Shown here in pieces: positions 390 through 31,878 of a stretch of 31,878 bases of DNA (position 1 is its first letter; every line of letters begins with the position of its first letter). The translations under genes were made by a program, and so were the position numbers. This stretch comes from a virus: IMG/VR virus record IMGVR_UViG_3300045988_091287; one strand, 5' to 3'. The notes under the pieces are model-generated. The model made no database searches. It was not told the origin of the DNA and saw nothing but the letters and a program-made list of their open reading frames with translations.

Positions 390-935
390 TTATTCAGCGG
401 ATATAAGCTGCGCCTGTCGGCGCAATGTAAGATTATCAGAATTAAATAAGCAAACCGGGGCGAGCCCGTTACTGTAGTTCGCACCGACGTAGTTGCTGAT
501 AGCTCCTGTCGGGTGGACGTTACGCACGATGTTAGCGTTGCCAGTGTCGCACCTCCAAGGAGTGAGCGTCCACATACATTCTTCAAACAGCGGTACATAG
601 TCTCTATACTTGCGGTACTGCTCGCAGGAAAGGAGCGTTATATAGTCCTCGCACGTTCCGTAAGCCTTGTCGCCGTTGTCCGCAGTAAGGTTTGATGTCT
701 GTTTTATAAGGTGTTTTGCGTCGAAATGCTCCTCTAGCACATCTTCATTGAGAAAGCGACGGAGCGTTGACGTTTTCCAGTTGTTACAACCGTCATTGTA
801 ATTATCGTTGAAACGTTTTTCACACCAACAATCGGCCGTTATTGCTAGATAGTTGCCGCCGATAATATCGAGGCATATAAAACGTATACCATTATATACG
901 AACTCCTCACCGGGTCTTAGTTTGATCTCATTCAT
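390..935 (-). CDS. DGR variable protein 2 (free-standing 181-aa ligand-binding-type domain with a C-terminal VR)
   Basis: The C-terminus ...WTLTPWRCDTGNANIVRNVHPTGAISNYVGANYSNGLAPVC is encoded by VR2, which matches the TR. It is paralogous to the C-terminus of the 462-aa target. The start region has a SD (aggaggaattacaATG). Confidence 0.8.
   Translation of the reverse strand: MNEIKLRPGEEFVYNGIRFICLDIIGGNYLAITADCWCEKRFNDNYNDGCNNWKTSTLRRFLNEDVLEEHFDAKHLIKQTSNLTADNGDKAYGTCEDYITLLSCEQYRKYRDYVPLFEECMWTLTPWRCDTGNANIVRNVHPTGAISNYVGANYSNGLAPVCLFNSDNLTLRRQAQLISAE
409..424 (-). promoter_or_regulatory. GC hairpin with 4-nt loop downstream of VR2 (candidate DGR target-recognition hairpin)
   Basis: tgcgcc-tgtc-ggcgca, with a 6-bp stem. 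It lies 30 nt beyond the GC-rich end of VR2, the same arrangement as after VR1. Confidence 0.55.
451..548 (-). repeat. DGR variable repeat 2 (VR2)
   Basis: Matches TR 12622-12716. Substitutions are seen only where the TR has T on the plus strand (A on the coding strand). There is one extra codon within 484-498. Homology stops after gccagtgt. Confidence 0.85.
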
Positions 936-2749: not shown

Positions 2750-4117
2750 CTATATCCACTTAAATTGACCGTCATTTTGTATAGCTATTTCTGCGTCGTA
2801 TTCTTTTTCAAGACCCGTGCCCGTCAAATCGACAAGCTCGCCAAATTCATCAAACGCACATGGTCTTGCGTCTAGTAACGCCTTTGTACTGCCGAACTTC
2901 GATATCATTCGCGAGTTTGTACCTTCGTCCGCGAAACTGTCAAATATGTTCACGTTGTGCTTTAGGCGGAACAGCTTGTACAACTCTTCGCGATAGCCGA
3001 AGCTTTCCATACAAGTCCGCCAGGCTCGGGGGTGCGTTTGGCGTAAAATAGATAAGTGATTATCCTTATACTGAATATCTGTGCCGCACATAATACAGCC
3101 GTTGCGCTTTATATGCTGCTTGTTTCCGTCGGCGTCTGTGTATTCAATATCGTAGAGCGGAGAATATTCAAGATCATACTTGCGTATGTATTCCCACACA
3201 TCATCATCAGTCCAAAACGCAAGCGGGTTGACGTGGTAAAATGCGCCGTCTTTAATGTGTGGTCTGTGACTTGCGAAAATATGTCCACGTGTCGCTATGC
3301 TTGTAAGCCTTGAATGGCTTTCAGACGCCATAAGGCCTTTAAATATAACGTCAACACCTAATTCGGCTTGCAGGCGTTCGGACGGCTCTTTTTTTAGTAA
3401 CTTGCAGCAATGTTGTGAAAACTTGCATTGACTGAGAATGCCGTAATACTCTTTTAATTCGTCTTTTTCTGATAATGTTTTTGAGTATTTCAAGAAACAT
3501 TCTATGTTAATTCTGTGGGCGTCAAGCCTGCTTGCTGCCTTGCCGAGCAACGGTGCGCCGTATTGTTCTATACAATAAGCGAACGTCTTTTTTTGTCCTG
3601 CGAAAAAGCAATTACTGTGATCTAGCACATAATCTCGTTTCTTGGCGGCAGCTATCAATGCCTTTTGACCTTTTAGCTTGCCGTCGGGCTTTAAAATCTC
3701 TTCGAGTGAGTTCTCCCGTTCAAGCTCCTCAACGAGTTCACGTGCGAAATGATAACGCAATTCATCTTCTTCGAGTTGTGATAATTTCGTTTCGTGAAAT
3801 CTATCGGAGAAATGTTCACGCCCATATTTTCGTGCAAATTTCAGACTTTCGGGAAATTCAATGCCCGTGTTGCCGAAAATGCAATGTACTGTTTTGAACT
3901 CGTCGGGAAAATATCTCTCGATAAGATCGGCGACAACCTCACTATCTTTTCCGCCCGAAAATGCGATTGCTGCTTTGTGCCGGCAGAGCCTCAACGCTCG
4001 CTTTATTACTTCAACGGCTATTCGTTCTTTTGTTTCAAGCGATAGCTCCCTAGTGTATGTATTGATTTCTCTAAATGAATACGACGACTTTATATAGTTG
4101 CCTATATTTTCAGACAT
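2750..4117 (-). CDS. PP-loop ATP pyrophosphatase / PAPS-reductase-family protein (DndC/IbrA-like size)
   Basis: PP-loop motif AFSGGKDSEV near the N-terminus and a C-terminal Cys cluster (NGCIMCG), about 455 aa. The ATG at 4117 is preferred over the track GTG at 4126. Confidence 0.8.
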   Translation of the reverse strand: MSENIGNYIKSSYSFREINTYTRELSLETKERIAVEVIKRALRLCRHKAAIAFSGGKDSEVVADLIERYFPDEFKTVHCIFGNTGIEFPESLKFARKYGREHFSDRFHETKLSQLEEDELRYHFARELVEELERENSLEEILKPDGKLKGQKALIAAAKKRDYVLDHSNCFFAGQKKTFAYCIEQYGAPLLGKAASRLDAHRINIECFLKYSKTLSEKDELKEYYGILSQCKFSQHCCKLLKKEPSERLQAELGVDVIFKGLMASESHSRLTSIATRGHIFASHRPHIKDGAFYHVNPLAFWTDDDVWEYIRKYDLEYSPLYDIEYTDADGNKQHIKRNGCIMCGTDIQYKDNHLSILRQTHPRAWRTCMESFGYREELYKLFRLKHNVNIFDSFADEGTNSRMISKFGSTKALLDARPCAFDEFGELVDLTGTGLEKEYDAEIAIQNDGQFKWI

Positions 4118-4122
4118 TGAAA

Positions 4123-4539
4123 TCACTCCGTTTCTTGTTTCTTATATTGCTTTTCGCTGTCCATTCTCGCACCGCAGCAAGGGCAATACGGCGTTGCGTC
4201 GCCCTCATTGTTGCCGTGTTCGCCGCACAACGAGCAAAAGGGTACTTTGACCGTTATGCGTTTTTTTAAAATTATAGTTGCTTTGTCTATGTTTTCTTCG
4301 GTAATAGTGCGATAGCCTTCCAGTATGCCGACATTGTCCGTGTTCACGACTTTCGTTCGTTCCTTGTAGACCCAACGCCCGTGTTTCACTTCTTGTACGT
4401 CTACGACAGGTTGTTCATTGATTATGTCAGCAATACTGCTGTTGTCACCCAGAATACCCGTTATGCCCTTTTCGTATATTGGCATACACGCTGCTGACAA
4501 TTCATCGATCAGAGACTTAGCGTCAATATATGTTTTCAT
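4123..4539 (-). CDS. Hypothetical protein with a C-terminal zinc ribbon
   Basis: CSLCG...YCPCCG (CxxC...CxxC). The ATG at 4539 is preceded by gaggaggaaaacc. Confidence 0.6.
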   Translation of the reverse strand: MKTYIDAKSLIDELSAACMPIYEKGITGILGDNSSIADIINEQPVVDVQEVKHGRWVYKERTKVVNTDNVGILEGYRTITEENIDKATIILKKRITVKVPFCSLCGEHGNNEGDATPYCPCCGARMDSEKQYKKQETE

Positions 4540-4968: not shown

Positions 4969-5304
4969 CTATGCTTTGCCTACTTTGCCATAGCGGAAAT
5001 AGTTGACTACGGCGTATATAAAAAGCTTGTTCGTGGGCTTGCTGTCAATGCTGAAAAGCTCCGAAAATATGCGGGGTCTATGCTCGTATGCTCGGTTGAT
5101 AGCGGTGCGAATGTTTCTCTCAACAGCGCCGCTCTTTATGTTATCTTCTTTGGCGATAATATCGTAGACTTCGCCGAGATTATCAACCTTTCCTGCGTTT
5201 ATAGCAAACACGGCTCTGATGATGTAGTCAATTCCCGTATACCCTGCGGAAACGCCAATGCGCACGAGCAGCTTATAAACCTCTGCTTCTGTCACTTTCT
5301 TCAT
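4969..5304 (-). CDS. Spo0A C-terminal (DNA-binding effector) domain homologue without a receiver domain
   Basis: IGVSAGYTGIDYIIRAV...VYDIIAKEDNIKSGAVERNIRTAINRAY...SKPTNKLFIYAVVNYF aligns by eye with B. subtilis Spo0A IGVPAHIKGYLYLREAI...[28 protein letters not shown]...AKPTNSEFIAMVADKL. Confidence 0.8.
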   Translation of the reverse strand: MKKVTEAEVYKLLVRIGVSAGYTGIDYIIRAVFAINAGKVDNLGEVYDIIAKEDNIKSGAVERNIRTAINRAYEHRPRIFSELFSIDSKPTNKLFIYAVVNYFRYGKVGKA

Positions 5305-5310
5305 TTGAAA

Positions 5311-5934
5311 TCACTCCGTTTCTATGTTTTGTGGGACGTTTTCCTGCGTCCACCGTCTGAACGCCTCTAAGCCTGCTCTTGCCTCTTTCTGTTCCTGCAA
5401 GGTAACTTTCATTTTCTCCTTGTACTGGAACTTACGATAATCAACTTGTCCGACGTTTGTTTCTTCTATGTAGTTCTTTATGCCGAGCTTGCTCACTTCC
5501 TCAGCAGGCTTTGCTATGCGTTCGGCAAGCAGCGCCTCTTGAAGTCGCTGCATACGCTTTGCACCTACGCCGAATTGCTCGGCAGTCTGAATAAGGGCAA
5601 GCTTGACATTGGCTGCGAGAACGGTTTTGTTATCCTTGCTGAAATCTGAGCAGCGACGAGCTACAAAAGCGTTGATCTTGTCAACGTCAATAGAACACCT
5701 TTTAACGCCCTGTTCTAACTTGAAATCAAGTACGCCGTCACGATCCTGCTCGTTTGCCGTCTTGCAGCTCTCGGCATATGTATCAATCCACTCAATGCAG
5801 CGCTTTGAATAGAACTGCTTTGGAAACTCTTTGTTAAGAGTAAGCAAGATTGTGCAGAGCAGCTCATAGTTTCTCGAAATAGCTATGAAAGCAAGACGGT
5901 TTTTCTGATAGTCCTTAAACTTTCTGTTTGTCAT
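5311..5934 (-). CDS. Hypothetical early protein (about 207 aa)
   Basis: Long ORF. The ATG at 5934 is preceded by the conserved gaaacggagtgatttca motif. No family recognised. Confidence 0.6.
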   Translation of the reverse strand: MTNRKFKDYQKNRLAFIAISRNYELLCTILLTLNKEFPKQFYSKRCIEWIDTYAESCKTANEQDRDGVLDFKLEQGVKRCSIDVDKINAFVARRCSDFSKDNKTVLAANVKLALIQTAEQFGVGAKRMQRLQEALLAERIAKPAEEVSKLGIKNYIEETNVGQVDYRKFQYKEKMKVTLQEQKEARAGLEAFRRWTQENVPQNIETE

Positions 5935-5965
5935 TGAAATCACTCCGTTTCATTTTTTTGTCCGT

Positions 5966-6193
5966 TTAGGCTTCTCGCTGATACTTACCGCTCAACTCGC
6001 CGTCGTCGAATAAGTATTCCATAGTGAGCTTAGGGAAAAATGTTCTGCGTATCGTCTGAGCTTCCTTAAGCTTTAACCTGTCGGGGTTAGACAGCTTTTC
6101 AGATACCGTATTGACGTTAAGCCCGAGTACGGCGGCTATGTCTTTTCTTGCTATGCCGTAGCGGCTCAGTTCCGCTTCAAGGTTTCTGTACAT
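5966..6193 (-). CDS. Cro-like XRE-family HTH regulator (75 aa)
   Basis: MYRNLEAELSRYGIARKDIAAVLGLNVNTVSEKLS... The ATG at 6193 has AGGAGG at 6206-6201. It is divergent from the CI-like gene. The track start at 6253 lies in the promoter region. Confidence 0.7.
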   Translation of the reverse strand: MYRNLEAELSRYGIARKDIAAVLGLNVNTVSEKLSNPDRLKLKEAQTIRRTFFPKLTMEYLFDDGELSGKYQREA

Positions 6194-6215
6194 ATAAATA
6201 CCTCCTTTTTGTGTG

Positions 6216-6306
6216 TTCACCCACCGTGGTGAATTTTCTATATTATATACCATATTTGGTGAATTGTCAAGCCTTTTTATAAAAAATTTTTGTTTATGGG
6301 TGAATT
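6216..6306. promoter_or_regulatory. Putative operator set: GGTGAATT x3 plus an inverted half-site
   Basis: GGTGAATT occurs at 6228-6235, 6258-6265 and 6299-6306. The inverted TTCACC at 6216-6221 forms TTCACC-N6-GGTGAA with the first copy. The sites overlap both divergent promoters. Confidence 0.5.
6242..6270 (-). promoter_or_regulatory. Early lytic promoter (consensus sigma-A type) for the cro-like operon
   Basis: On the minus strand: TTGACA (6270-6265), a 17-nt spacer, then TATAAT (6247-6242). Confidence 0.65.
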
Positions 6307-6310
6307 GCTC

Positions 6311-6339
6311 TTGATTTTTCTATATAATTGTGATATAAT
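6311..6339 (+). promoter_or_regulatory. Repressor/lysogeny-module promoter with an extended -10
   Basis: TTGATT (6311-6316), a 17-nt spacer, then TGaTATAAT (6331-6339). Confidence 0.65.
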
Positions 6340-6361
6340 TACAGCATTGGAGGTGCTTATA

Positions 6362-6823
6362 TTGGAAAATTATACATTAGGTGACGTTGAGCAGAAACTA
6401 AAAGATTACATTTTGCAAAATTATAAGAGCTTGAGAGAGTTTTGTATGCAAATAGATCGTTCATATTCTACGATTGATAATATGCTTAAAAGAGGGCTAG
6501 TCAACAGCAGCGTTTCTCTTGTTCTTTACGTTTGCGATAGATTAAATCTTAGCATTGATGATTTATTAAGTGGGAATATCGTAGAAAGAGGCGCTGACAT
6601 TTACCCCGAAATAACCGATAATGAACGCCTCATCATTATGGAATACAGAAAACACCCCGAAATGCACGCAGCGATTGACAAGCTCTTAGATATACAAGAG
6701 CTAAAAATAACAATAAGTCAGAAAGCTGCTCGTAGTGGTGATGATCGTGCGGTTGACGCTTTGAAAATGACTTCTGACCGTGTGGCTAAGTTTGAAAACG
6801 CTGAAACTGACGACGATATTTAA
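6362..6823 (+). CDS. CI-like XRE-family HTH repressor (ImmR-type, no S24 peptidase domain seen)
   Basis: HTH KSLREFCMQIDRSYSTIDNMLKRG. The likely start is the in-frame TTG at 6362, 6 nt after GGAGGTG (6349-6355) and downstream of the promoter. The track start at 6290 lies upstream of the -35. Confidence 0.8.
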   Translation: MENYTLGDVEQKLKDYILQNYKSLREFCMQIDRSYSTIDNMLKRGLVNSSVSLVLYVCDRLNLSIDDLLSGNIVERGADIYPEITDNERLIIMEYRKHPEMHAAIDKLLDIQELKITISQKAARSGDDRAVDALKMTSDRVAKFENAETDDDI

Positions 6824-8018: not shown

Positions 8019-9635
8019 ATGGCAAGAGCCGCAAAGCAAGACAATAATTCAGAAATAATTGACGGCGTGATATATGCCCGCTATTCGGAAGGTCCTAACC
8101 AAACGGAGGCAAGCATAGAGGGGCAAGTTCGAGAGTGCAAAGAGTATGCTAAGCGAAACGGCATACGAATTATAAACGTATACTCGGACAGCAAGCACAC
8201 GGGCACGAACGATAACCGAGCAGAGTTTCAAAAAATGCTCCGTGATAGCAGGCGTGGCGGTTTTTCCGTTGTTGTAGTATGGAAAATAGACCGTTTCGGA
8301 CGTAATCGTGCAGAAATGGCACAAAATAAAGCCCTACTAAAGTTGCAAGGCGTTAAGGTCGTATCAGCGAAAGAGTACATACCCGATAGTCCCGAGGGAA
8401 TAATACTTGAAAGCGTACTCGAGGGTATGGCGGAATATTACTCCGCCAATTTGTCGCAGAACATAAAACGAGGTATGAAAGAAAATGCTCTGCATTGCAA
8501 GAGCAACGGCTCCGGAAAGAGCTTAGGTTACATTGTAGACAAAGACGGGTATTTTGAAATTGAGCCAAATGAGGCAACGATAGTCAAGACAATATTTCAG
8601 AAGTACGACGAGGGAATGAAGATTGCCGACATATGGCGTGAGATTGTGGCAAGCGGTGCAAAGACAAAGAGAGGTAAAGACTTCACGCAGTACGGCATAT
8701 CTCGTGTGCTGAGCAACAGGGCATATATAGGCGAATACCGCTACGGCGATATTGTAACGCCCGGCGGAATGCCACGCATAATAGACGATGATCTATTTAA
8801 TAGAGTGCAAGAAAGACGTGCGCTGAGCAAAAAAGCTCCCGCAAGCAGGCGGAGCAATAGTGATGTTGATTTTCTTCTGACCGGTAAAGTGTTCTGTGGG
8901 CATTGCAAAGGAACTATGCGAGGAATGAGCGGAACGAGTAAGACAGGGCGCAAATTCTATTATTATGCTTGCCACGATAAAATCTTCAAGCATAATAAGT
9001 GTACTAAAAAGAATGTAAAAAAAGAATGGCTTGAAACTGAGGTTACACGAATAACAAGAGATGATATACTCAACAAGGAAACAATAGAGTTTATTGCTGA
9101 TCGAGTAGTTGAGATACAAAGGCAAGAGCAAGAGGATAAGTCAATGCTCCGCTACTATGAGCAACAGCTCCGTGATACTCAGAGCGCTATTAACAACATA
9201 ATGAAAGCGATAGAGGCAGGAATTATAACAAGCTCAACGAAAAGCAGATTATTTGAGCTCGAGGAGCAGAAATCTATAATTGAGGGCGAAATAGAAAGGG
9301 AAAAAATAATAACGCCCGTAATTGAGAAAGAACAGGTTATTTTCTCTCTCGAACGTTTTTTCGGTGGAGATATAAATAATAAAGAATATCAACGTAATAT
9401 TATTGATATGTTCGTGAATAAGGTTATATTATATGACAACAAAATAATAATCACATATAATATTAGTTCACAAAATGAAATATCTGTTGATGTGGTGGAA
9501 CAAGCGGCATTTGCGGCATTAGATGAGTGTTCGTCTAAGCTCTCGTTACCTCCACCAAATGTTGAAAAGACGAACACAACAAATATATTCTTTGTGAGTG
9601 GTCTTTTCGGAATAATAACAACGCCTCATGATTGA
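8019..9635 (+). CDS. Large serine recombinase (phage integrase)
   Basis: The N-terminal resolvase domain has the catalytic Ser context IYARYSEGPNQTEASIEGQ. It also has a recombinase domain, a Cys-rich zinc ribbon (CGHCKG...YYYAC) and a C-terminal coiled coil. 538 aa. Confidence 0.9.
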   Translation: MARAAKQDNNSEIIDGVIYARYSEGPNQTEASIEGQVRECKEYAKRNGIRIINVYSDSKHTGTNDNRAEFQKMLRDSRRGGFSVVVVWKIDRFGRNRAEMAQNKALLKLQGVKVVSAKEYIPDSPEGIILESVLEGMAEYYSANLSQNIKRGMKENALHCKSNGSGKSLGYIVDKDGYFEIEPNEATIVKTIFQKYDEGMKIADIWREIVASGAKTKRGKDFTQYGISRVLSNRAYIGEYRYGDIVTPGGMPRIIDDDLFNRVQERRALSKKAPASRRSNSDVDFLLTGKVFCGHCKGTMRGMSGTSKTGRKFYYYACHDKIFKHNKCTKKNVKKEWLETEVTRITRDDILNKETIEFIADRVVEIQRQEQEDKSMLRYYEQQLRDTQSAINNIMKAIEAGIITSSTKSRLFELEEQKSIIEGEIEREKIITPVIEKEQVIFSLERFFGGDINNKEYQRNIIDMFVNKVILYDNKIIITYNISSQNEISVDVVEQAAFAALDECSSKLSLPPPNVEKTNTTNIFFVSGLFGIITTPHD

Positions 9636-10656: not shown

Positions 10657-11102
10657 TACTGTTCTCCTCCTTGGCTTTCTTCAACTGTTATTTTTAAACG
10701 GTGTACGATTTTAACGAGAAATGACGGCAACGGCACGCCGAGAACGGAAATGTTTTCAAGAATGCTTATACACTCATTGATGATGAGCCATATTGTGACG
10801 ATTACGCCGAAATAATAGCTAAATCCTATATCAATTCCCACCGAGGACAGCCCTTCGCTTATGAGCCAGTCCGTGACACCCGCTACGCACACTACAAGGA
10901 TATAGCAGAGCTTTTTGACAGCTCCGACAATCCCTATTCGGCTACTTAGATCACTCTTATACCACGCTTTCGCAAGCCCGCTCAGATAGTCTATTATCAT
11001 AACGGCGATCAGTATAAGCAGCGGCATAGCTATTACGCCGAAATATGCAGACAGACCGCCTAGGACGGCGGCGACAATGCCCTTAAATACGTTTTCTTTC
11101 AT
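10656..11102 (-). CDS. Holin (phage_holin_4 / toxin-secretion holin-like)
   Basis: Several TM helices: GIVAAVLGGLSAYFGVIAMPLLILIAVMIIDYLSGLAKAW... Located upstream of the endolysin. Confidence 0.85.
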   Translation of the reverse strand: MKENVFKGIVAAVLGGLSAYFGVIAMPLLILIAVMIIDYLSGLAKAWYKSDLSSRIGIVGAVKKLCYILVVCVAGVTDWLISEGLSSVGIDIGFSYYFGVIVTIWLIINECISILENISVLGVPLPSFLVKIVHRLKITVEESQGGEQ

Positions 11103-11261
11103 TTATGCCTCCTTGCCGTCGTCGAAATCATATCCTGTGATTTCTGTATACTCTTCGGCTGTGATCCACTTGTGCACTACTGCGTCATATACCTTGCGTA
11201 TATCCCACAAACCACGCTCGTAGTAGTCTTTGACCTTAGCATATTTCTTACTCTGTGACAT
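11103..11261 (-). CDS. XkdX-family small protein (52 aa, not in the ORF track)
   Basis: Hand translation: MSQSKKYAKVKDYYERGLWDIRKVYDAVVHKWITAEEYTEITGYDFDDGKEA, showing the typical Y-x-x-G-x-W ... IT-x-EEY-x-x-ITG pattern. GAGGAGG lies 9 nt upstream. Located just before the holin. Confidence 0.65.
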   Translation of the reverse strand: MSQSKKYAKVKDYYERGLWDIRKVYDAVVHKWITAEEYTEITGYDFDDGKEA

Positions 11262-11433
11262 TTTCAAGCACCTCCTCTTTTTCGTTTTCGAGTTCTACAT
11301 CAAACACCATTGCTATATAGTCAATATTAGCGGCGTTTCTGTCGTTTTCCACCTTAAGTGCGGCGCTTTTCTGTCGCTCTTTTATAAGCTGGTCTTTTAC
11401 TGATATGTAGCCAAACATAGCTATTCCCTCCAT
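11248..11433 (-). CDS. Hypothetical small protein downstream of the RT
   Basis: 61-aa ORF overlapping the RT stop. No motif recognised and the start is uncertain (MFGYISVK... is possible). Confidence 0.4.
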   Translation of the reverse strand: MEGIAMFGYISVKDQLIKERQKSAALKVENDRNAANIDYIAMVFDVELENEKEEVLENVTE

Positions 11434-12464
11434 AGATTATAATAATATTCCTGCATACTATCTATCAGCTTATAGCAGTTCCCTTTGCTTGCGTGCGAAG
11501 CCCAGGACTTGAAACACTCGTCAACTTGTTCTCGGTTCATTGCGCCACGTTCACATAATTGCACAAGCTTTGCGAGCTTGCGGCGAGCTCTCGTGACCTT
11601 TTTCGGCAATACACGCATTATGACCTTTCCTGTACTTGTAAGCCTAAAACTGAAACCTAAGAAGTGTATGGGCTGTTTAATCGGGAATAATTGAGTTTTC
11701 TTCTTACTAAATTTTAGCCCTAGTTTCTCGAGTTCTTCGCCTATGTGCTCTTTGCAAAATGTCAAATATTCTTTGCTTTGATGTATAAGTATGAAATCGT
11801 CCATATAACGAACATAATACTTTATGCCTAGTTGCTCTTTAATTAAATGGTCGATGTCGTCTAATACTGCAAGCTGAATAAGCTGCGTGACTTGCGAGCC
11901 TAAGCCCATTCCTTTTGACGGGTCAACTCCTTGCGTAAAGCTGTTTATAATTCTTTCGGTTTCAGCATACGCCCAATCGTCAGAAACTCTTTTCCGAACA
12001 GCAGCGCAAGCGACGCTGTGAGGCGTAGAGCCGAAATAATCCGAAATATCACACTTAATAATATAACCGTTAAGACCCGATTTTCTATAAAATCGCTGCA
12101 TATGACATTTCAATCGCTCACGGGCGAAATCTGTTCCTTTACCCTTTTGACAAGCGCAATTATCGTATATAAAAGATCTCGTTATCTGTTCTGTAAGGTA
12201 ATTATCACATAACGAACGTTGAAACACCCTGTCTTTTATTCTTGTGCTTACGATAACACGTTCTTTCGGCTCGTAGATTTTAAAAACGGTATAATCACCG
12301 ATTTTGTACTTTCCGCTCATAAGCTCGTCTTTTAGTTTATAACAGTTTGTCAAGCCGTTCTTAACGAAACCCGCTGTGCTATCTTTCCACATCACATTTC
12401 TTCTGCATACAAGCATTGCCTTATACAGATTTTCAAAGTCACATACATTCTCTTTTACTGTCAT
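11421..12464 (-). CDS. DGR reverse transcriptase
   Basis: RT motifs: YEPKERVIVSTRIKDRVFQRSL, YDNCACQKGKGTDFA, KCDISDYFGS, GLGSQVTQ (the SQ motif typical of DGR RTs) and RYMDDFILI. It lies immediately downstream of a TR with adenine-specific differences to two VRs. Confidence 0.9.
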   Translation of the reverse strand: MTVKENVCDFENLYKAMLVCRRNVMWKDSTAGFVKNGLTNCYKLKDELMSGKYKIGDYTVFKIYEPKERVIVSTRIKDRVFQRSLCDNYLTEQITRSFIYDNCACQKGKGTDFARERLKCHMQRFYRKSGLNGYIIKCDISDYFGSTPHSVACAAVRKRVSDDWAYAETERIINSFTQGVDPSKGMGLGSQVTQLIQLAVLDDIDHLIKEQLGIKYYVRYMDDFILIHQSKEYLTFCKEHIGEELEKLGLKFSKKKTQLFPIKQPIHFLGFSFRLTSTGKVIMRVLPKKVTRARRKLAKLVQLCERGAMNREQVDECFKSWASHASKGNCYKLIDSMQEYYYNLWRE

Positions 12465-12621
12465 ATTATCTCTTCTACAAAACTTACGTTGTTAATAGTG
12501 ATACTTACTCAAAAAGTAAATCACATCAACGTTATACTTTCACCATATCGGCTAGGATAATAGTTCCTTGTGTGATTGCATTGATTTCAGCTATTGAGCC
12601 TACTTTAAGCTAGCATTATCA

Positions 12622-12734
12622 CAATCCGGGGCGAGCCCGTTACTGTTGTTCGCATTGTTGTTGTTGATAGCTCCTGTCGGGTTGACGTTACGCACGTTGT
12701 TAGCGTTGCCAGTGTTAGGAGTACGCAGCCACCA
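12622..12734 (-). repeat. DGR template repeat (TR)
   Basis: Non-coding copy between avd and the RT. In the target frame it reads WWLRTPNTGNANNVRNVNPTGAINNNNANNSNGLAP, with 13 Asn codons (12 AAC, 1 AAT). There are 34 A positions on the coding strand. Confidence 0.9.
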
Positions 12735-12766
12735 CAAAGCAGAAATAAAACAACTATTACCCTAAT

Positions 12767-13180
12767 TTACTTTCCGTATCTATCGTAATCGGACTTTCTC
12801 CAATTACGCAGTAACACTTGAACTTCGTTTACAAGTCTAGTCCAATACTCAATACGTTTGCTTTCTATACTGAAAACACTATATGCAATGTCAATCATAC
12901 TTAGTAAGGCGTATGTTTCAGCAAGAGCTTTCGTCTGATACTGTCGCCTTAGCTGATAATCTTTCTTGTTATCATCATTAACGTAAATAGAATTGGCTGC
13001 ATTAACGTTGCTACTCACATCAATGGCGCAATCAACGATTTTAGCAGTAATGCACCACCTATAACGCTTAGGAAAGTTCTTTTCATTTGAACATATCTTA
13101 ATTGTATATGCGGCAAGCTCTCTCGCTTTGGTTACTACTAATAACTTGCCCTCAGTCTGTTTTGATTTTACAACTGACAT
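12767..13180 (-). CDS. avd: Accessory variability determinant (Avd-like four-helix-bundle protein)
   Basis: 137 aa, basic and helical, with the FPKRYRW and AN-rich helix pattern of the four-helix-bundle/Avd family. It sits between the target gene and the TR. Confidence 0.75.
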   Translation of the reverse strand: MSVVKSKQTEGKLLVVTKARELAAYTIKICSNEKNFPKRYRWCITAKIVDCAIDVSSNVNAANSIYVNDDNKKDYQLRRQYQTKALAETYALLSMIDIAYSVFSIESKRIEYWTRLVNEVQVLLRNWRKSDYDRYGK

Positions 13181-13194
13181 TGCTTTCTCCTTTC

Positions 13195-13212
13195 CGCCCT
13201 CTACCGAGGGCG
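13195..13212 (-). promoter_or_regulatory. GC hairpin with 4-nt loop downstream of VR1 (candidate DGR target-recognition hairpin)
   Basis: cgccctc-tacc-gagggcg, with a 7-bp stem. It lies 25 nt beyond the GC-rich end of VR1, in the target-avd intergenic region. Confidence 0.6.
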
Positions 13213-13220
13213 ATTATTGA

Positions 13221-14609
13221 TTAAATAATGCAACAAGCCGGGGCGAGCCCGATACTGCCGTTCGCACTGGTGCTGATGATAGCTCCTGCCGGGTTGACGC
13301 CACGCACGTTGCTAGCGTTGCCAGTGTAAGGAGTACGCAGCCACCAATAGGATGGCGTGCCGTTACTTTGATACTTAATGCGGTTCGTGTCGTTGCCATC
13401 GTTTTTGCTCGCAAAGTCTGAGTAGTTTTTATAGTATGGGTACGCTGCACCCTCATCAACGCTATTTTCAAAATTTCCGTAAACTTCGGAACGTGAAAGC
13501 AAGAATATTTTCTCCGTGCTTGTTTTAGAACCTCCACCGTCAGTAAGTGTGTTGAGCGCCGTTACTTTCGTGACCTCGCCGAGAACTGAAATGAAATCGG
13601 GGTCTACGCCACGCAGAAAGCCGCTTTCAGTGTCTGCCCAGGACGGCTTGTGTGAAAACTTGCTCTGCCTCGTCCACGTTCCGCCAGGAGCGGCAGAGCT
13701 GTTAAGCCTCATTCTGAGATCACTCTCAGCCCAGTTGTTAGAGCCATAGCGAGCACGCTGAATGTGATTGAGGTCTGACACGGTGCCGTCTGCCGTTCCG
13801 AGCGACGTTCCCTCTGAGCCCTCCTGAACAGATACAGTTTCAATAACCGCACTAGCATTAGCATTAACATACGTCGAAACCTTTGTAGCTGACGCCTGCT
13901 GCTGATACGCCCACGGAAACATAATCTGACCCGCAGCGGGTACAGGTTTTGTAAGCGTAAACTGATATGTTTTGCCTCCGCCGTTTTCCATGTCATATCC
14001 CGCAGGCAATGTAAAATTGTATGTCCCCGCTGGAAGTTCCTCTCTAGCATAATATATAGCCTCCGTGTTGTCGAACTGTATGTTCTGATAGAGATCGTGA
14101 AGCTGCAATGTGAGAGAGTGCTTGAACTGACTATCGGCGGGTGTGTCGTGATCTATGCCGATTACATCAAATACAAGTTTGTTAGCCGTTTCGTGCACAA
14201 GCACCTCGTCGCCTGCTTTCGGTGTACCCGTTACTGTGATACCATACGCTGAAAGCTGTACAGGCTCACCATTGAAATGCCACTCAGCGCCGTTATATGA
14301 AAACTCATACTCCCCGTTGTGTGACGTACCTACCGCCGCTATGAACGTGTCTGCGGCTACTGTGGCACAAGCGGTAATGCCGCTTGTGCCCCCTGTGTTG
14401 CCGACGGTTGCAGTTATCGCAGTTTCTTTTTCGGCTATGATCTGATCGCCGATAGCAAACACCTTGTCTGCCATACCCGCTCTTACGATAGCCTGCACGT
14501 CTGCAAAGCTGTTAATTTTAAAACCGCCCGTGTTCGCTGCAATCGCAGCTACCGAACGAGCTATGCCCTGCATAGTGCTGTCTCTTACGAGGTCTATTGT
14601 TTCTGCCAT
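13221..14609 (-). CDS. DGR variable protein 1 (tail-fibre / receptor-binding-type protein with a C-terminal VR)
   Basis: 462 aa, the last gene of the tail module. The C-terminus ...SYWWLRTPYTGNASNVRGVNPAGAIISTSANGSIGLAPACCII is encoded by VR1. Confidence 0.85.
   Translation of the reverse strand: MAETIDLVRDSTMQGIARSVAAIAANTGGFKINSFADVQAIVRAGMADKVFAIGDQIIAEKETAITATVGNTGGTSGITACATVAADTFIAAVGTSHNGEYEFSYNGAEWHFNGEPVQLSAYGITVTGTPKAGDEVLVHETANKLVFDVIGIDHDTPADSQFKHSLTLQLHDLYQNIQFDNTEAIYYAREELPAGTYNFTLPAGYDMENGGGKTYQFTLTKPVPAAGQIMFPWAYQQQASATKVSTYVNANASAVIETVSVQEGSEGTSLGTADGTVSDLNHIQRARYGSNNWAESDLRMRLNSSAAPGGTWTRQSKFSHKPSWADTESGFLRGVDPDFISVLGEVTKVTALNTLTDGGGSKTSTEKIFLLSRSEVYGNFENSVDEGAAYPYYKNYSDFASKNDGNDTNRIKYQSNGTPSYWWLRTPYTGNASNVRGVNPAGAIISTSANGSIGLAPACCII
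13234..13346 (-). repeat. DGR variable repeat 1 (VR1)
   Basis: Same length as the TR (113 nt). All 13 mismatches fall at TR plus-strand T (coding-strand A). Confidence 0.9.
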
Positions 14610-14611
14610 TG

Positions 14612-14800
14612 TTATTCCTCCGTTTCTTTATATGTCAACGATAAACTTTTATCGCTGTTTACTGATAGTAAAAAATTCTTGTCGTGATAAATGTCTTTCA
14701 CGGCCTTTTCTGCTTCTGCTGCCGCTGCGTTTGCGGCTGTTGCTGCCGCATTAGCTGATTTTACGGTTTTCCTCGCAATAGCGGTTGCTTCTAAGTCCAT
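14612..14800 (-). CDS. Hypothetical small Ala-rich protein in the tail-fibre region
   Basis: 62-aa ORF tightly packed upstream of the DGR target. No motif recognised. Confidence 0.45.
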   Translation of the reverse strand: MDLEATAIARKTVKSANAAATAANAAAAEAEKAVKDIYHDKNFLLSVNSDKSLSLTYKETEE

Positions 14801-14815
14801 TATTTGTGCTGCCTC

Positions 14816-15013
14816 CTATATCTTTACCCAGGATAGAGCTTCACCGTCGAAAACGAAAACCTCGCCTGTGTCGATTTCAAAAAAAGTCGAGCCGTTTCCG
14901 ACTTTGTACCCGCATATCATATCCGTAGGCTTGGTATCGGTTGACTTTCCTCTAAGTTCCAGTATAGGCGCTCTGTCCGTGAGTGAAGTTGTCGCCTTGT
15001 ATATAGTTATCAC
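14816..15013 (-). CDS. Hypothetical small protein in the tail-fibre region
   Basis: 65-aa ORF with SD (aggagggttaatgtgATA context). No motif recognised. Confidence 0.45.
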   Translation of the reverse strand: MITIYKATTSLTDRAPILELRGKSTDTKPTDMICGYKVGNGSTFFEIDTGEVFVFDGEALSWVKI

Positions 15014-31114: not shown

Positions 31115-31878
31115 TCATTCACCCCTTATTTTCTTCGTTAGCTTTCTGTTTGTGATTTTGCGCATTCGCAATGATATGTAAAATCCGCCGTTAATGTCAT
31201 TGTAAAACGGCTTCGCTTGCGAAAATTCATATCCTGGATAGAGCTTTTCGTATTCTAAATTTCCATCGTATTCTCCGAACGAACTAAGCTCTTTCACTTT
31301 TCGAGCGGACAAGCGCCCGTCCCTTTTGCTCTCTATCGGTTTGTCGAGATTTCGGGAACACGTCCAGGAGTAACCGATAGTTTCTCCTATGTCCTCGTCC
31401 GTAGCGGATTTTTTCTTTCTGCCTTTGCAAAAATAACGAGATAGCCCCTCAACGCCGCATTGATCGAATTGCAAAACCTTAATGTCAACATAGCCTTGCC
31501 CCCATAGCTCTACAAGCACCGGAGCAGGCATATCACCACAATTAACGATCGTATGATGATGATAGCGGCCGTTTCTGCTTCCCCTTTCTGTTACCGACAT
31601 ATATTTCAGCGACGGCAAGCCGTGCTTTTTTCGATAGCGCTTAAGACGGGCGATGAAATTACGAAATTGTTTCTTGACCGCTTCATCATTCCCAGGCAAA
31701 TGATCTCCGTTGTAGGTCAAGTGTATGCAGAGATCGGAGCTAGTGAAGTTCGTCATAACGAGCCGTGAGAATTTCTTTTCACGGTTATGCTGATTAAGCC
31801 TCTCTTGCGCCGCTGATGAACATTTTGCTTTCTTTCCTCGGCCTCCTCGAGAAGTCGAGAACACGGGGTATATATCTA
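31115..31878 (-). CDS. HUH rolling-circle replication initiator (Rep); the 5' end continues at nt 56-107 across the junction
   Basis: Motif 1-like is CIHLTYN, the HUH motif is RYHHHTIVN and the Tyr motif is LSRYFCKG. The track ORF 31115-31864 begins at an internal GTG only because the contig ends. Confidence 0.7.
   Translation of the reverse strand, partial: DIYPVFSTSRGGRGKKAKCSSAAQERLNQHNREKKFSRLVMTNFTSSDLCIHLTYNGDHLPGNDEAVKKQFRNFIARLKRYRKKHGLPSLKYMSVTERGSRNGRYHHHTIVNCGDMPAPVLVELWGQGYVDIKVLQFDQCGVEGLSRYFCKGRKKKSATDEDIGETIGYSWTCSRNLDKPIESKRDGRLSARKVKELSSFGEYDGNLEYEKLYPGYEFSQAKPFYNDINGGFYISLRMRKITNRKLTKKIRGE
31824..31878. repeat. Terminal overlap, copy 2 (identical to 1-55)
   Basis: Exact 55-nt identity with the window start. 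Confidence 0.95.

Follow-up and report, generated by a model that had tools for sequence, protein, structure and literature searches.

Organization of the retroelement locus

The window, that is, the whole stretch of 31,878 nt that was analyzed, comes from a phage with siphovirus-type tail genes and a serine integrase, relatives of which were found in Clostridia MAGs. It is a temperate phage of the human gut and a very common one, with its exact reverse transcriptase (RT) sequence present in 693 blocks of an assembly collection. From the list of open reading frames and the alignment of the repeats, a diversity-generating retroelement (DGR) was delimited on the minus strand, in the order target gene, Avd, template repeat (TR), predicted structured spacer RNA and RT (Table 1). 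This cassette is flanked by tail genes (Tal, BppU_N) on one side and by XkdX-holin-endolysin on the other. The TR adjoins the RT gene on the same strand, with its end 156 nt upstream of the RT start. A previous reading made from the sequence only had described this same order in a Firmicutes-type temperate siphovirus, between the tail-fibre and lysis genes, and had called the architecture BPP-1-type. All of this was borne out, as the ORFs are those described, the spacer measures 156-157 nt, and the relatives of the RT and Avd agree with such an architecture.

Table 1. Features of the retroelement and of its second target in the window
Feature	Position	Strand	Details
Target gene 2, 181-aa single-domain DUF6273 protein, early gene region	390..935	-	ORF; Pfam DUF6273, E 2.6e-7
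GC-rich hairpin, 6-bp stem, 4-nt loop	409..424	-	27 nt downstream of VR2
VR2, second variable repeat, 98 nt versus TR 12622-12716	451..548	-	9 substitutions and one 3-nt insertion
In-frame 3-nt insertion in VR2 versus TR	487..489	-	within AAC-AAC-AAC-AAT run; exact placement ambiguous
DGR reverse transcriptase, 347 aa	11421..12464	-	R69, LGSQVTQ 188-194, YMDD 220; Pfam RVT_1
Predicted structured spacer RNA between TR and RT	12464..12618	-	match to Rfam RT-2, RF03077
TR, template repeat	12621..12734	-	non-coding; 13 AAY codons in target frame; ungapped comparison
Avd-like accessory protein, 137 aa, pI 9.5, four-helix bundle	12767..13180	-	AlphaFold and Foldseek
GC-rich hairpin, 7-bp stem, 4-nt loop	13195..13212	-	in target-Avd intergenic gap; 21 nt downstream of VR1
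Target gene 1, 462-aa protein, C-terminal DUF6273 domain carrying VR1	13221..14609	-	ORF; Pfam
VR1, variable repeat at 3' end of target gene 1	13233..13346	-	114 nt, ungapped versus TR
GC-only 13-mer, IMH-like element at VR1 3' end	13238..13250	-	exact-match count

Template and variable repeats

The TR and the variable repeat of target gene 1 (VR1) were compared exactly, without gaps, at an offset of 612. They differ at 13 positions, at all of which the TR has a T on the plus strand, that is, an A on the coding minus strand, and the 80 non-adenine positions are identical in the two repeats. With 34 A in the 114 nt of the TR, the hypergeometric probability that 13 of 13 mismatches fall on A is 2.1e-8 (1.5e-7 when computed as 0.3^13). 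The hand alignment of the sequence-only reading had listed these same 13 positions and no mismatch outside adenines, and in both respects it was right; only the length had to be corrected, from 113 nt starting at 12622 and 13234 to 114 nt starting one nucleotide earlier in each case.

In the frame of the target the TR reads WWLRTPNTGNANNVRNVNPTGAINNNNANNSNGLAPDC, and a recount gave the 13 Asn codons reported before (12 AAC and 1 AAT), a design that allows 15 possible amino acids at 13 positions per event with no stop codon. VR1 ends 12 nt before the stop codon of its gene. Four other genomes share the TR at 100% identity but have different variable repeats, and between near-identical genomes VR1 changes at isolated and dispersed adenine sites.

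A third copy of the repeat, which had been mentioned only in passing and lies outside the region covered by the sequence-only reading, proved to be real and was named VR2. It is located in the C-terminal third of the small target, around 12 kb from the main cassette. Its nine substitutions are all at TR adenines (p = 3e-5) and its non-A positions are all as in the TR, in such a way that the exact alignment of the three copies, proposed by the previous reading as a check, found substitutions between TR, VR1 and VR2 at TR adenines only.

The three repeats have in common a GC-only 13-mer, GGGCTCGCCCCGG, of which there are exactly 3 copies in the window (at 455, 12626 and 13238), and their sequences diverge within 5 nt after it. 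On the coding strand, the 13-mer is followed by A in the TR, by C in all VR1s and by T in almost all of the VR2s examined, and for this reason the TR/VR1 mismatch at 12625 is probably a fixed IMH/IMH* difference and not a product of mutagenesis. Of the 13 mismatches first taken as mutagenic, 12 are thus kept, and leaving 12625 out, 12 of 12 sites are on adenine (p = 1.1e-7). Downstream of each variable repeat there is also a GC-rich hairpin, an equivalent of which, with different stem sequences, follows the VR in 27 of 41 related elements; a strict scan found none downstream of the TR of the window. A hairpin in this position is reportedly functional in BPP-1, and by analogy those described here may take part in target recognition.

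The reverse transcriptase

The motifs EPKERVI, LGSQVTQ and YMDD were found in the RT, in agreement with the 347-aa protein with EPKERVI, GLGSQ and YMDD predicted previously. Its best match in the PDB was the RT of the BPP-1 DGR (8ub7_A, E 2e-29), aligned over residues 25-341, essentially the full length, and group II RTs reached only about 1e-8 in the same search. DGR RTs carry the signature [I/V/L]GxxxSQ in place of QGxxxSP (PMC7826257). The LGSQVTQ of motif 4 has a T instead of the canonical S, a conservative change, and keeps L and Q; the canonical SQ is present in 51 of the 59 RT relatives that were scored. Two positions of the BPP-1 enzyme (bRT), R74 and I181, promote adenine mutagenesis (PMC7826257), and they align with R69 and L188, both conserved in kind. 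An equivalent TR/VR/RT layout was found at 68 of 80 loci encoding RT relatives, where a TR lies just upstream of the RT and shows its own A-only mismatches to a VR.

The scores against other RT families were low: 95 bits for TIGR04416 (group II; NCBIfam cut-off 300), 63 for Drt3a (cut-off 200) and 31 for retron St85 (cut-off 235), with Drt2, Drt4 and Drt5 lower still. In addition, an Rfam search of positions 11000-15000 found no intron or retron RNA. The best PDB relative, the motifs, the family scores and the TR/VR pairs of the relatives support that the RT belongs to the DGR family, as the sequence-only reading had proposed.

These data bear on a quite different explanation, in which the repeats would be an ordinary duplication or gene-conversion tract after drift that happens to lie beside an unrelated RT of a group II intron, a retron or an Abi/Drt system. 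The weak matches below threshold to group II maturase, Drt3a, Drt2 and retron models could be cited for it, but any RT-domain protein gives such matches, and the families concerned stay far below their cut-offs (95 versus 300 bits for group II). The nearest solved structure is a DGR RT, 68 of 80 relatives have an A-biased TR/VR pair, and neither an intron RNA domain, a maturase or endonuclease extension nor a retron msr/msd was found, the adjacent RNA matching RT-2 instead. Drift, for its part, would not restrict all 13 differences in VR1 and all 9 in VR2 to a single template base. We consider this explanation refuted at the level of sequence, with practically no probability left to it.

Avd and the spacer RNA

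The Avd-like protein matched the family models below their cut-offs, both in NCBIfam (DivGenRetAVD, E 4e-7, 30 bits versus a cut-off of 80) and in Pfam (bAvd, E 3e-4, 21.6 bits versus 40). Its AlphaFold model (pLDDT 84.6) has four helices, and the top 14 PDB matches found with Foldseek all belong to the Avd / 23S-IVP family (2gsc, 2rld, the Avd chains of 8ub7, and 4dwl), with target-normalised TM scores of 0.81-0.87 and rmsd values of 2.1-2.8 Å. Hence the 137-aa basic helical protein that had been recognized as Avd-like is modelled as a four-helix bundle, and the structural comparison that had been suggested for it led to 4dwl and the Avd chains of 8ub7.

With cmscan, the spacer between TR and RT matched the whole of the Rfam RT-2 model at 38.3 bits (E 1.3e-7), slightly below the gathering score of 40, two internal segments of the model being much shortened. 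The spacer of a related element (L011) reached 40.9 bits, above the threshold, and in a set of 22 spacers compensatory changes were detected in 14 of 16 predicted pairs of the 3' domain.

The target proteins

In the large target, the DUF6273 domain covers residues 283-461 (Pfam, E 2.6e-20). A profile search matched the protein to the N-terminal DUF6273 domain of an IgA protease from T. ramosa (9qa6, E 7e-10), and a Foldseek search with the full-length AlphaFold model (mean pLDDT 81) retrieved only this same domain of 9qa6, and no Mtd or other C-type lectin. The assignment of DUF6273 as C-type-lectin-like comes from published work (PMC10743442). From the position of its gene at the end of the tail module and from its DUF6273 domain, the 462-aa protein is probably a receptor-binding protein. 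The sequence-only reading had deduced a programmed hypervariation of the receptor-binding tip; hypervariation at the Asn codons of the TR was indeed found, and the tip itself is suggested by that position and that domain.

The gene of the small target is located just upstream of that of the replication initiator, on the other side of the circular junction, across which contiguity was found. In the phages nd4, nd12 and Toutatis, a gene distant from that of the RT codes for a DUF6273-type protein, with which the small target shares around 28-29% identity. The small-target gene also circulates in about 40 related phage genomes (IMG/VR contigs), which we read as having no cognate TR or VR1 because no second match to the A-masked TR/VR pattern was found in them. 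The 3-nt insertion of VR2 is present in the window and in two related genomes (L289 and L291) and absent in five others (L290, L292, L084, L091 and L107); among genomes with identical TRs, VR2 keeps this insertion and its central codons, and adenine sites change on both sides.

The insertion counts against VR2 being rewritten by this element, since a full-length homing event should erase it. It could be explained if VR1 were the sole live target and VR2 an orphan copy in a recombining early-gene module, no longer rewritten by this TR. The contigs with the small-target gene and no second A-masked match would fit such a situation, as would a 2-nt deletion in the VR2 of L107 and the low number of distinct sequences (only 33 of 61) among ungapped VR2s. 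Nevertheless, we hold it to be unlikely. The VR2 of the window equals the TR of the window at every non-A position, including a window-specific T at ACACTGG, and the VR2 of another contig (076469) has the C of its own TR. The GC 13-mer and the downstream hairpin are both present at VR2, and five genomes with 100% identical TRs show four different VR2s that differ at A sites only. Finally, in four collinear genomes the density of variable sites in VR2 is 14 times that of its flanks, and 7 of the 39 differences from a genome 99.8% identical to the window are in VR2, including transversions typical of A-to-N change. We therefore keep VR2 as a second target of the element.

Evidence for activity

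The diversification of VR1 was analyzed in 24 homologues of the target at least 93% identical. The entropy was 2.41 bits at the 13 Asn codons of the TR, 0.12 at the other VR positions and 0.09 elsewhere, and all 24 have different VR1s. At a larger scale, the 90% cluster of the target contains 743 distinct sequences, in contrast to the recurrence of one exact RT sequence described above. Three non-A columns distinguish the TRs of four near-identical phages, and in every case VR1 has the variant of its own TR, whereas these VR1s differ among themselves only at TR-A columns. Such mirroring of non-A variants in the cognate VR1 implies a transfer from TR to VR after those lineages split. Moreover, another genome shows only 3 differences from the window in 17,617 nt, and one of them is at an adenine site of VR1.

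A single assembled genome cannot show activity, and in five 99%-identical genomes VR1 is nearly constant, with 1-3 sites differing, as would be expected of a fossil cassette that no longer diversifies and whose VR differences are inherited relics. We regard this as very improbable. The ORF of the RT is intact and has its YMDD, and the TR is identical to both VRs at all non-A positions, where a fossil would gather differences. The mirrored TR variants and the different VR1 in each of the 24 homologues also speak against it, and so does the concentration of the differences among 99.8-99.98%-identical genomes in VR1 and VR2, at A sites. From this comparison of assemblies, adenine-specific diversification is apparently ongoing, and we conclude with high confidence that the locus is a complete, apparently active BPP-1-type DGR, carried by a temperate siphovirus of 31.8 kb whose host is one of the gut Clostridia.

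Proposed mechanism

By analogy with BPP-1, one RNA spanning the TR and the structured spacer would be transcribed, and the RT and the four-helix-bundle Avd would assemble on the spacer. With priming at the TR 3' end, cDNA would be synthesized by an RT that is faithful at C, G and U but misincorporates opposite A, and the cDNA would then replace the homologous VR. Three features would serve for targeting: the GC-only 13-mer at the VR 3' end, the bases next to it, which are specific to the VR (IMH) and differ from those of the TR (IMH*), and the GC-rich hairpin 20-30 nt downstream of the VR. Two genes would be rewritten in this way, those of the 462-aa DUF6273 protein of the tail module and of the remote 181-aa DUF6273 protein of the early region. 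The priming chemistry, the complex of Avd, RT and RNA, the role of the hairpins and the receptor-binding function are modelled here on the biochemistry of BPP-1.

Two linked variations on this scheme can be proposed, to which we jointly assign a low probability. According to the first, conversion is patchy, and retrohoming may often replace only short tracts of the VR; the insertion of VR2, which adds an NNC codon to the (AAC)3AAT run, could be a product of slippage of the RT on the repeat. According to the second, the small target is diversified in trans, and it could be a portable orphan-VR module rewritten by the DGR of a co-resident phage.

Comparison with known systems

The prototype of these elements is that of BPP-1 (mtd-avd-TR-brt), with which the present one shares the order of a target with a C-terminal VR, Avd, TR, spacer (predicted here to be structured) and RT, as well as the adenine-only mismatches and the AAY codon design of the TR. 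Both have a GC-rich 3' element with VR/TR divergence just after it (IMH/IMH*) and a GC-rich hairpin with a 4-nt loop after the VR; bRT and the RT of the window align over the full length, and the Avd model can be superposed on 4dwl and on the Avd chains of 8ub7. By contrast, the target domain is here DUF6273, whereas Mtd is a C-type-lectin protein, to which no match was obtained by sequence or by Foldseek. There are two targets, one of them around 12 kb away, motif 4 is LGxxxTQ instead of the IGSLTSQ of bRT, and the phage, a siphovirus that encodes a serine integrase, has a Gram-positive gut anaerobe as its host. The spacer also differs, since in BPP-1 it was assigned the RT-10 motif (Weinberg et al., PMC5737381) and here it matches RT-2. 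RT-2 (RF03077) belongs to the series RT-1 to RT-19 described in 2017 by Weinberg et al. (PMC5737381), who speculated that further RT motifs belong to DGRs; an explicit DGR assignment of RT-2 was not found in that paper. In the window, the whole-model match to RT-2 fills the TR-RT gap exactly, the position that RT-10 has in BPP-1.

Also comparable are the Faecalibacterium prophages Lelie and Toutatis, and CP11, temperate phages of gut Clostridia in which two proteins, one large and one small, are diversified by a DGR; each contains DUF6273, with the VR at the C-terminal end of this domain (PMC11792537). The window resembles them in host, in lifestyle and in its two DUF6273 targets, Lelie has a phiC31-type serine integrase (PMC11792537), and the small target is homologous to the DUF6273 protein of Toutatis (28% identity). 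However, the RTs are only 33% identical, the genome is smaller (31.8 kb versus 53-55 kb) and the DNA is otherwise unrelated, the only megablast match being MT835664. The human-gut phages nd4 and nd12 also have two DGR targets (PMC10743442), but their large target ("tentaclin") has its VR near the 5' end and Ig-like domains, whereas in the window each of the two VRs is C-terminal and the N-terminal region of the large target differs from theirs. Pairs of DUF6273 targets, one large and one small, have already been described for DGRs of gut Clostridia phages (PMC11792537, PMC10743442), and the present element is a clean case of a system that is well known and not new.

Template and Variable Repeats

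The window carries a real and unusually clean diversity-generating retroelement (DGR), whose features are collected in the table below. In an exact comparison, the template repeat (TR) and the variable repeat of the large target gene (VR1) align over 114 nt with no gaps, at an offset of 612 nt, and differ at 13 positions, each of them a T on the plus strand, that is, an A on the coding minus strand. The non-adenine positions are identical throughout (80 of 80). Given that adenines make up 34 of the 114 nt, the probability of finding 13 of 13 differences at adenines by chance is 2e-8 (hypergeometric). Translated in the frame of the target, the TR reads WWLRTPNTGNANNVRNVNPTGAINNNNANNSNGLAPDC, with 12 AAC codons and one AAT codon. 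A sequence-only reading had aligned both repeats by hand, and its alignment and 13 mismatch positions were reproduced exactly by the computed pairwise comparison; its ORFs and motifs were also confirmed as given. A further 34-nt direct repeat between the reverse transcriptase (RT) gene (12222-12255) and the target gene (14457-14490), 74% identical, was judged a chance match.

Coordinates of the features discussed in the text
Feature	Position	Strand	Description
Small target gene	390-935	-	181-aa DUF6273 protein, contains VR2
Hairpin	409-424		GC-rich, 4-nt loop, 27 nt downstream of VR2
VR2	451-548	-	third repeat copy
VR2 insertion	487-489	-	3 nt
PAPS_reduct gene	2750-4126	-	early region, 455-458 aa
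Spo0A_C gene	4969-5304	-	early region, 111 aa
Immunity-region difference	~5930-6660		177-aa and 95-aa ORFs
RT gene	11421-12464	-	reverse transcriptase
TR	12621-12734	-	template repeat
Avd gene	12767-13180	-	137 aa
Hairpin	13195-13212		GC-rich, 4-nt loop, 21 nt downstream of VR1
Large target gene	13221-14609	-	462-aa DUF6273 protein
VR1	13233-13346	-	3' end of large target gene
Replication initiator gene	31115-31864	-	

The third copy, VR2, shows nine substitutions with respect to TR positions 12622-12716, all nine at adenines (p = 3e-5), together with an in-frame insertion inside an AAC-AAC-AAC-AAT run. Upstream of 548 the similarity on the VR2 side is found at the protein level only and includes non-adenine differences, so that VR2 falls around 19 nt short of VR1 on the 5' side.

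All three repeats are closed by the GC-only 13-mer GGGCTCGCCCCGG, with no other occurrence in the window, and diverge at most 5 nt past it. The 13-mer is followed by A in the TR, by C in all the VR1s seen and by T in almost all the VR2s seen, in a way that resembles the distinction between IMH and IMH*, the boundary elements of VR and TR, in BPP-1, the Bordetella phage with the prototype DGR. This pattern makes the mismatch at 12625, one of the 13 listed in the sequence-only reading, probably a fixed boundary difference rather than a product of mutagenesis. A hairpin follows both VR1 and VR2, and of 41 related elements, 27 have a comparable one after the VR, with a differing stem sequence. By contrast, a strict scan detected none after the TR of the window, nor after the TRs of 32 of the 41 relatives, with mean hairpin scores of 9.8 after VRs and 1.9 after TRs. 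By analogy with BPP-1, these hairpins may help in target recognition.

Location of the Cassette, Probable Host and Spread

Positions 1-55 of the window are an exact repeat of 31824-31878, so the assembly is circular and complete, and the genome measures 31,823 bp. Gene order on the minus strand starts with the replication initiator, large terminase, portal, major head protein and major tail protein, continues with the tape measure, Dit, Tal (994 aa), a BppU_N-domain protein and two small ORFs, and ends with the DGR target, Avd, TR, spacer and RT, followed by XkdX, holin and a GH25/LysM endolysin. The plus strand encodes a large serine recombinase and the lysogeny module, and no sheath gene was found among the tail genes of the window. 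This order places the DGR cassette between the tail-tip and lysis genes of a temperate siphovirus, upholding the setting assigned to it from the sequence alone.

In a genome-collection scan, the nearest relatives of the RT (57-69% identity) were found in MAGs that bear the labels Ruminococcus sp., Eubacteriales and Clostridia, the best one (69%) in a Ruminococcus sp. MAG. A host among the Clostridia would fit these labels. An unannotated sequence from human faeces, MT835664, is 97% identical. The exact RT protein is present in 693 blocks of a public assembly collection, and the large target belongs to a cluster (P0127) that holds 743 distinct sequences at 90% identity; so widespread a phage lends itself well to studying how DGRs behave in their natural setting in the human gut. 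Four of the 693 RT blocks have contigs larger than 0.2 Mb, with the phage in its prophage state, and could reveal the host. In the relative L024 (RT identity 68%), a tmRNA gene (8302-8666 of that locus, minus strand) is located around 2.3 kb downstream of the RT, which suggests that the phage there integrated beside ssrA.

Other genes were also noted. One early-region protein has a Spo0A_C domain, according to the Pfam annotation of its identical gene in the relative L289; Spo0A is the master regulator of sporulation, and finding its DNA-binding domain on a phage would be of interest if the host is a spore-forming member of the Clostridia. Another, with a PAPS_reduct domain, may be an enzyme of DNA modification or of nucleotide metabolism. 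In the immunity region, the relatives L290 and L292, otherwise 99% identical, have an HTH_3 repressor and a BetR-like gene where the window has its two ORFs, so that a whole module of the lysogeny switch has been exchanged.

Reverse Transcriptase, Avd and Spacer RNA

The best solved relative of the RT is chain A of 8ub7, the BPP-1 DGR ribonucleoprotein (residues 25-341, E 2e-29); group II intron RTs matched it at only about E 1e-8, and all the non-DGR RT families in NCBIfam were far under their cut-off. Residues R74 and I181 of bRT have been shown to promote adenine mutagenesis (PMC7826257), and they align, respectively, with R69 and with L188 of the window RT, the latter being the first residue of the signature motif. 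This motif, [I/V/L]GxxxSQ (PMC7826257), reads LGSQVTQ in the window, with a conservative S-to-T change, and the canonical SQ is present in 51 of the 59 RT relatives scored. The strongest family test for the RT is the repeat context of its relatives: 68 of the 80 IMG/VR loci with an RT relative (30-100% identity) have an adenine-biased repeat pair, with at least 80% of the mismatches at adenines on the RT strand (100% in most), and with one copy directly upstream of the RT.

The 137-aa protein gave only sub-threshold matches with Avd HMMs, and sequence and profile searches of the PDB gave no match. Its AlphaFold model is a four-helix bundle (pLDDT 84.6). The 14 structures that Foldseek ranked highest for this model are all Avd / 23S-rRNA-IVS family proteins; 4dwl, which is Bordetella Avd, and 8ub7 Avd chains are among them, with target-normalised TM scores of 0.81-0.87. 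These matches, together with a pI of 9.5, bear out the basic, helical, Avd-like protein read from the sequence alone.

TR and RT are separated by 156 nt that match the whole Rfam RT-2 model (RF03077), from 3 nt past the TR to the start codon of the RT, at 38.3 bits (E 1.3e-7) for a gathering score of 40. In a relative whose RT is 48% identical, the spacer reaches 40.9 bits, above this threshold. In an alignment of 22 spacers, compensatory changes were found in 14 of the 16 pairs predicted in the 3' domain; RNAalifold on this MAFFT alignment covers the 3' domain only, the 5' part being too poorly aligned. Weinberg et al. located RT-10 at the equivalent position of BPP-1 and conjectured a role in DGRs for further RT motifs (PMC5737381), a conjecture that the locus of the window supports for RT-2 as a putative DGR RNA. 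A literature search pairing RT-2 with DGRs gave no match.

Evidence for Diversification of the Targets

The variation of the targets was analyzed among related genomes. In 24 distinct large-target homologues at least 93% identical and from different assemblies, the mean entropy was 2.41 bits at the 13 positions of TR Asn codons, compared with 0.12 bits at the other VR positions and 0.09 bits in the remaining 421 residues. The 743 sequences of the target cluster likewise contrast with an RT that recurs unchanged in 693 blocks. Similarly, in 61 ungapped VR2 homologues from IMG/VR the entropy was 1.21 bits for the TR-adenine columns, against 0.18 bits for the others. In four near-identical phages the TRs vary at three non-adenine columns and each VR1 has the variant of its own TR, the mutual differences between the VR1s being confined to TR-adenine columns, which requires transfer from TR to VR later than the split of these lineages.

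Four further genomes, 99.1-99.98% identical to the window over 17.6 kb, have TRs 100% identical in all. One of them has 3 differences from the window in 17,617 nt, one of them at a VR1 adenine site, and in another 39 nt differ, 7 within the 98-nt VR2 and 1 within VR1. The density of variable columns in four collinear genomes was 0.32 in VR2 versus 0.023 in its 3.8 kb flanks. These comparisons, made between assemblies and not within a population, are strong indirect evidence that the DGR diversifies its targets.

The VR2 insertion is common to the window and the relatives L289 and L291 and absent from L290, L292, L084, L091 and L107, with the TRs, where visible, all of the same length. In L291 the insertion and the central codons are kept and the adenine sites on either side differ from those of the window, and in the VR1s of five near-identical genomes just 1-3 scattered adenine sites differ. 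As a full-length replacement of the VR would erase the insertion and re-randomise all the adenine sites, conversion looks patchy here, for which short cDNA tracts, variable crossover points or heteroduplex mismatch repair are possible causes.

The five codons that span the insertion are all NNC or NNT, as an AAY template would yield, suggesting slippage of the RT on the perfect (AAC)3 rather than later replication slippage. A TR variant with five AAY codons, which could account for the additional codon of VR2, had no exact match in IMG/VR. Several phages thus show length changes inside VR2, namely this insertion, 3-nt deletions in L093, L114-L118, L134, L135 and L148 and a 2-nt deletion in L107, two of them falling within the (AAC)n run. 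The deletion in L107 would frameshift the small target, which would then be either a pseudogene or an artefact of mixed-population assembly.

The Small Target and Its Template

The small-target gene is located among the early genes, around 12 kb from the TR. Directly downstream of it, on the other side of the circular junction, lies the replication initiator, and in relatives, too, it is followed at once by the replication-initiator gene. Its product shares 28-29% identity with proteins of nd12, nd4 and Toutatis whose genes are distant from the RT, and the combination of a large target with a remote small DUF6273 protein is known in Lelie/Toutatis, CP11, nd4 and nd12 (PMC11792537, PMC10743442).

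All the IMG/VR contigs were scanned with a 38-nt TR/VR pattern with masked adenines. Around 40 small-target contigs (20-145 kb; loci L246-L287) gave a single match each, corresponding to VR2, and in the two close relatives of the window the same scan found TR and VR1. With three exact or masked patterns, a cognate TR was detected in around 70 small-target phage contigs only for the two closest relatives of the window; the stretches compared around the small-target genes of those phages end short of the tail/lysis region. These approximately 40 phages may have an orphan VR2 without cognate template, or their contigs may be incomplete.

Comparison with Known Systems

Neither in mechanism and architecture nor in its combination of a large with a small DUF6273 target does this element go beyond published work, and knowledge of DGRs is unchanged by it. 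Its modest extra value lies in the near-identical genomes that vary at VR1 and VR2, in the retained in-frame indel and in the link between RT-2 and the DGR spacer, the window helping to place this Rfam motif as a DGR spacer RNA. With most of their differences in VR1 and VR2, dozens of near-identical genomes are ready data on the VR tract replaced per event, and they also bear on how one TR serves two unlike targets.

The Foldseek matches of the full-length model of the 462-aa target included neither Mtd nor any other C-type-lectin structure; they were one multi-domain PDB match, 9qa6 (the DUF6273 domain of an IgA protease), and DUF6273 phage proteins in BFVD. The assignment of DUF6273 to the C-type lectins is that of PMC10743442.

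The element works like the DGR of BPP-1, and the defining features tested were found in the window, except that the spacer RNA falls under 2 bits short of its curated family threshold and that the target model had no match with a C-type-lectin fold. DGRs have been reported as common in phages of Faecalibacterium and other gut Clostridia (PMC11792537), and the closest described relatives are the gut-phage DGRs of nd12, FP_Brigit, Shimadzu and Lelie/Toutatis, with RTs 42%, 36%, 35% and 33% identical to that of the window, respectively; these DGRs, too, pair a large DUF6273 target with a small one.
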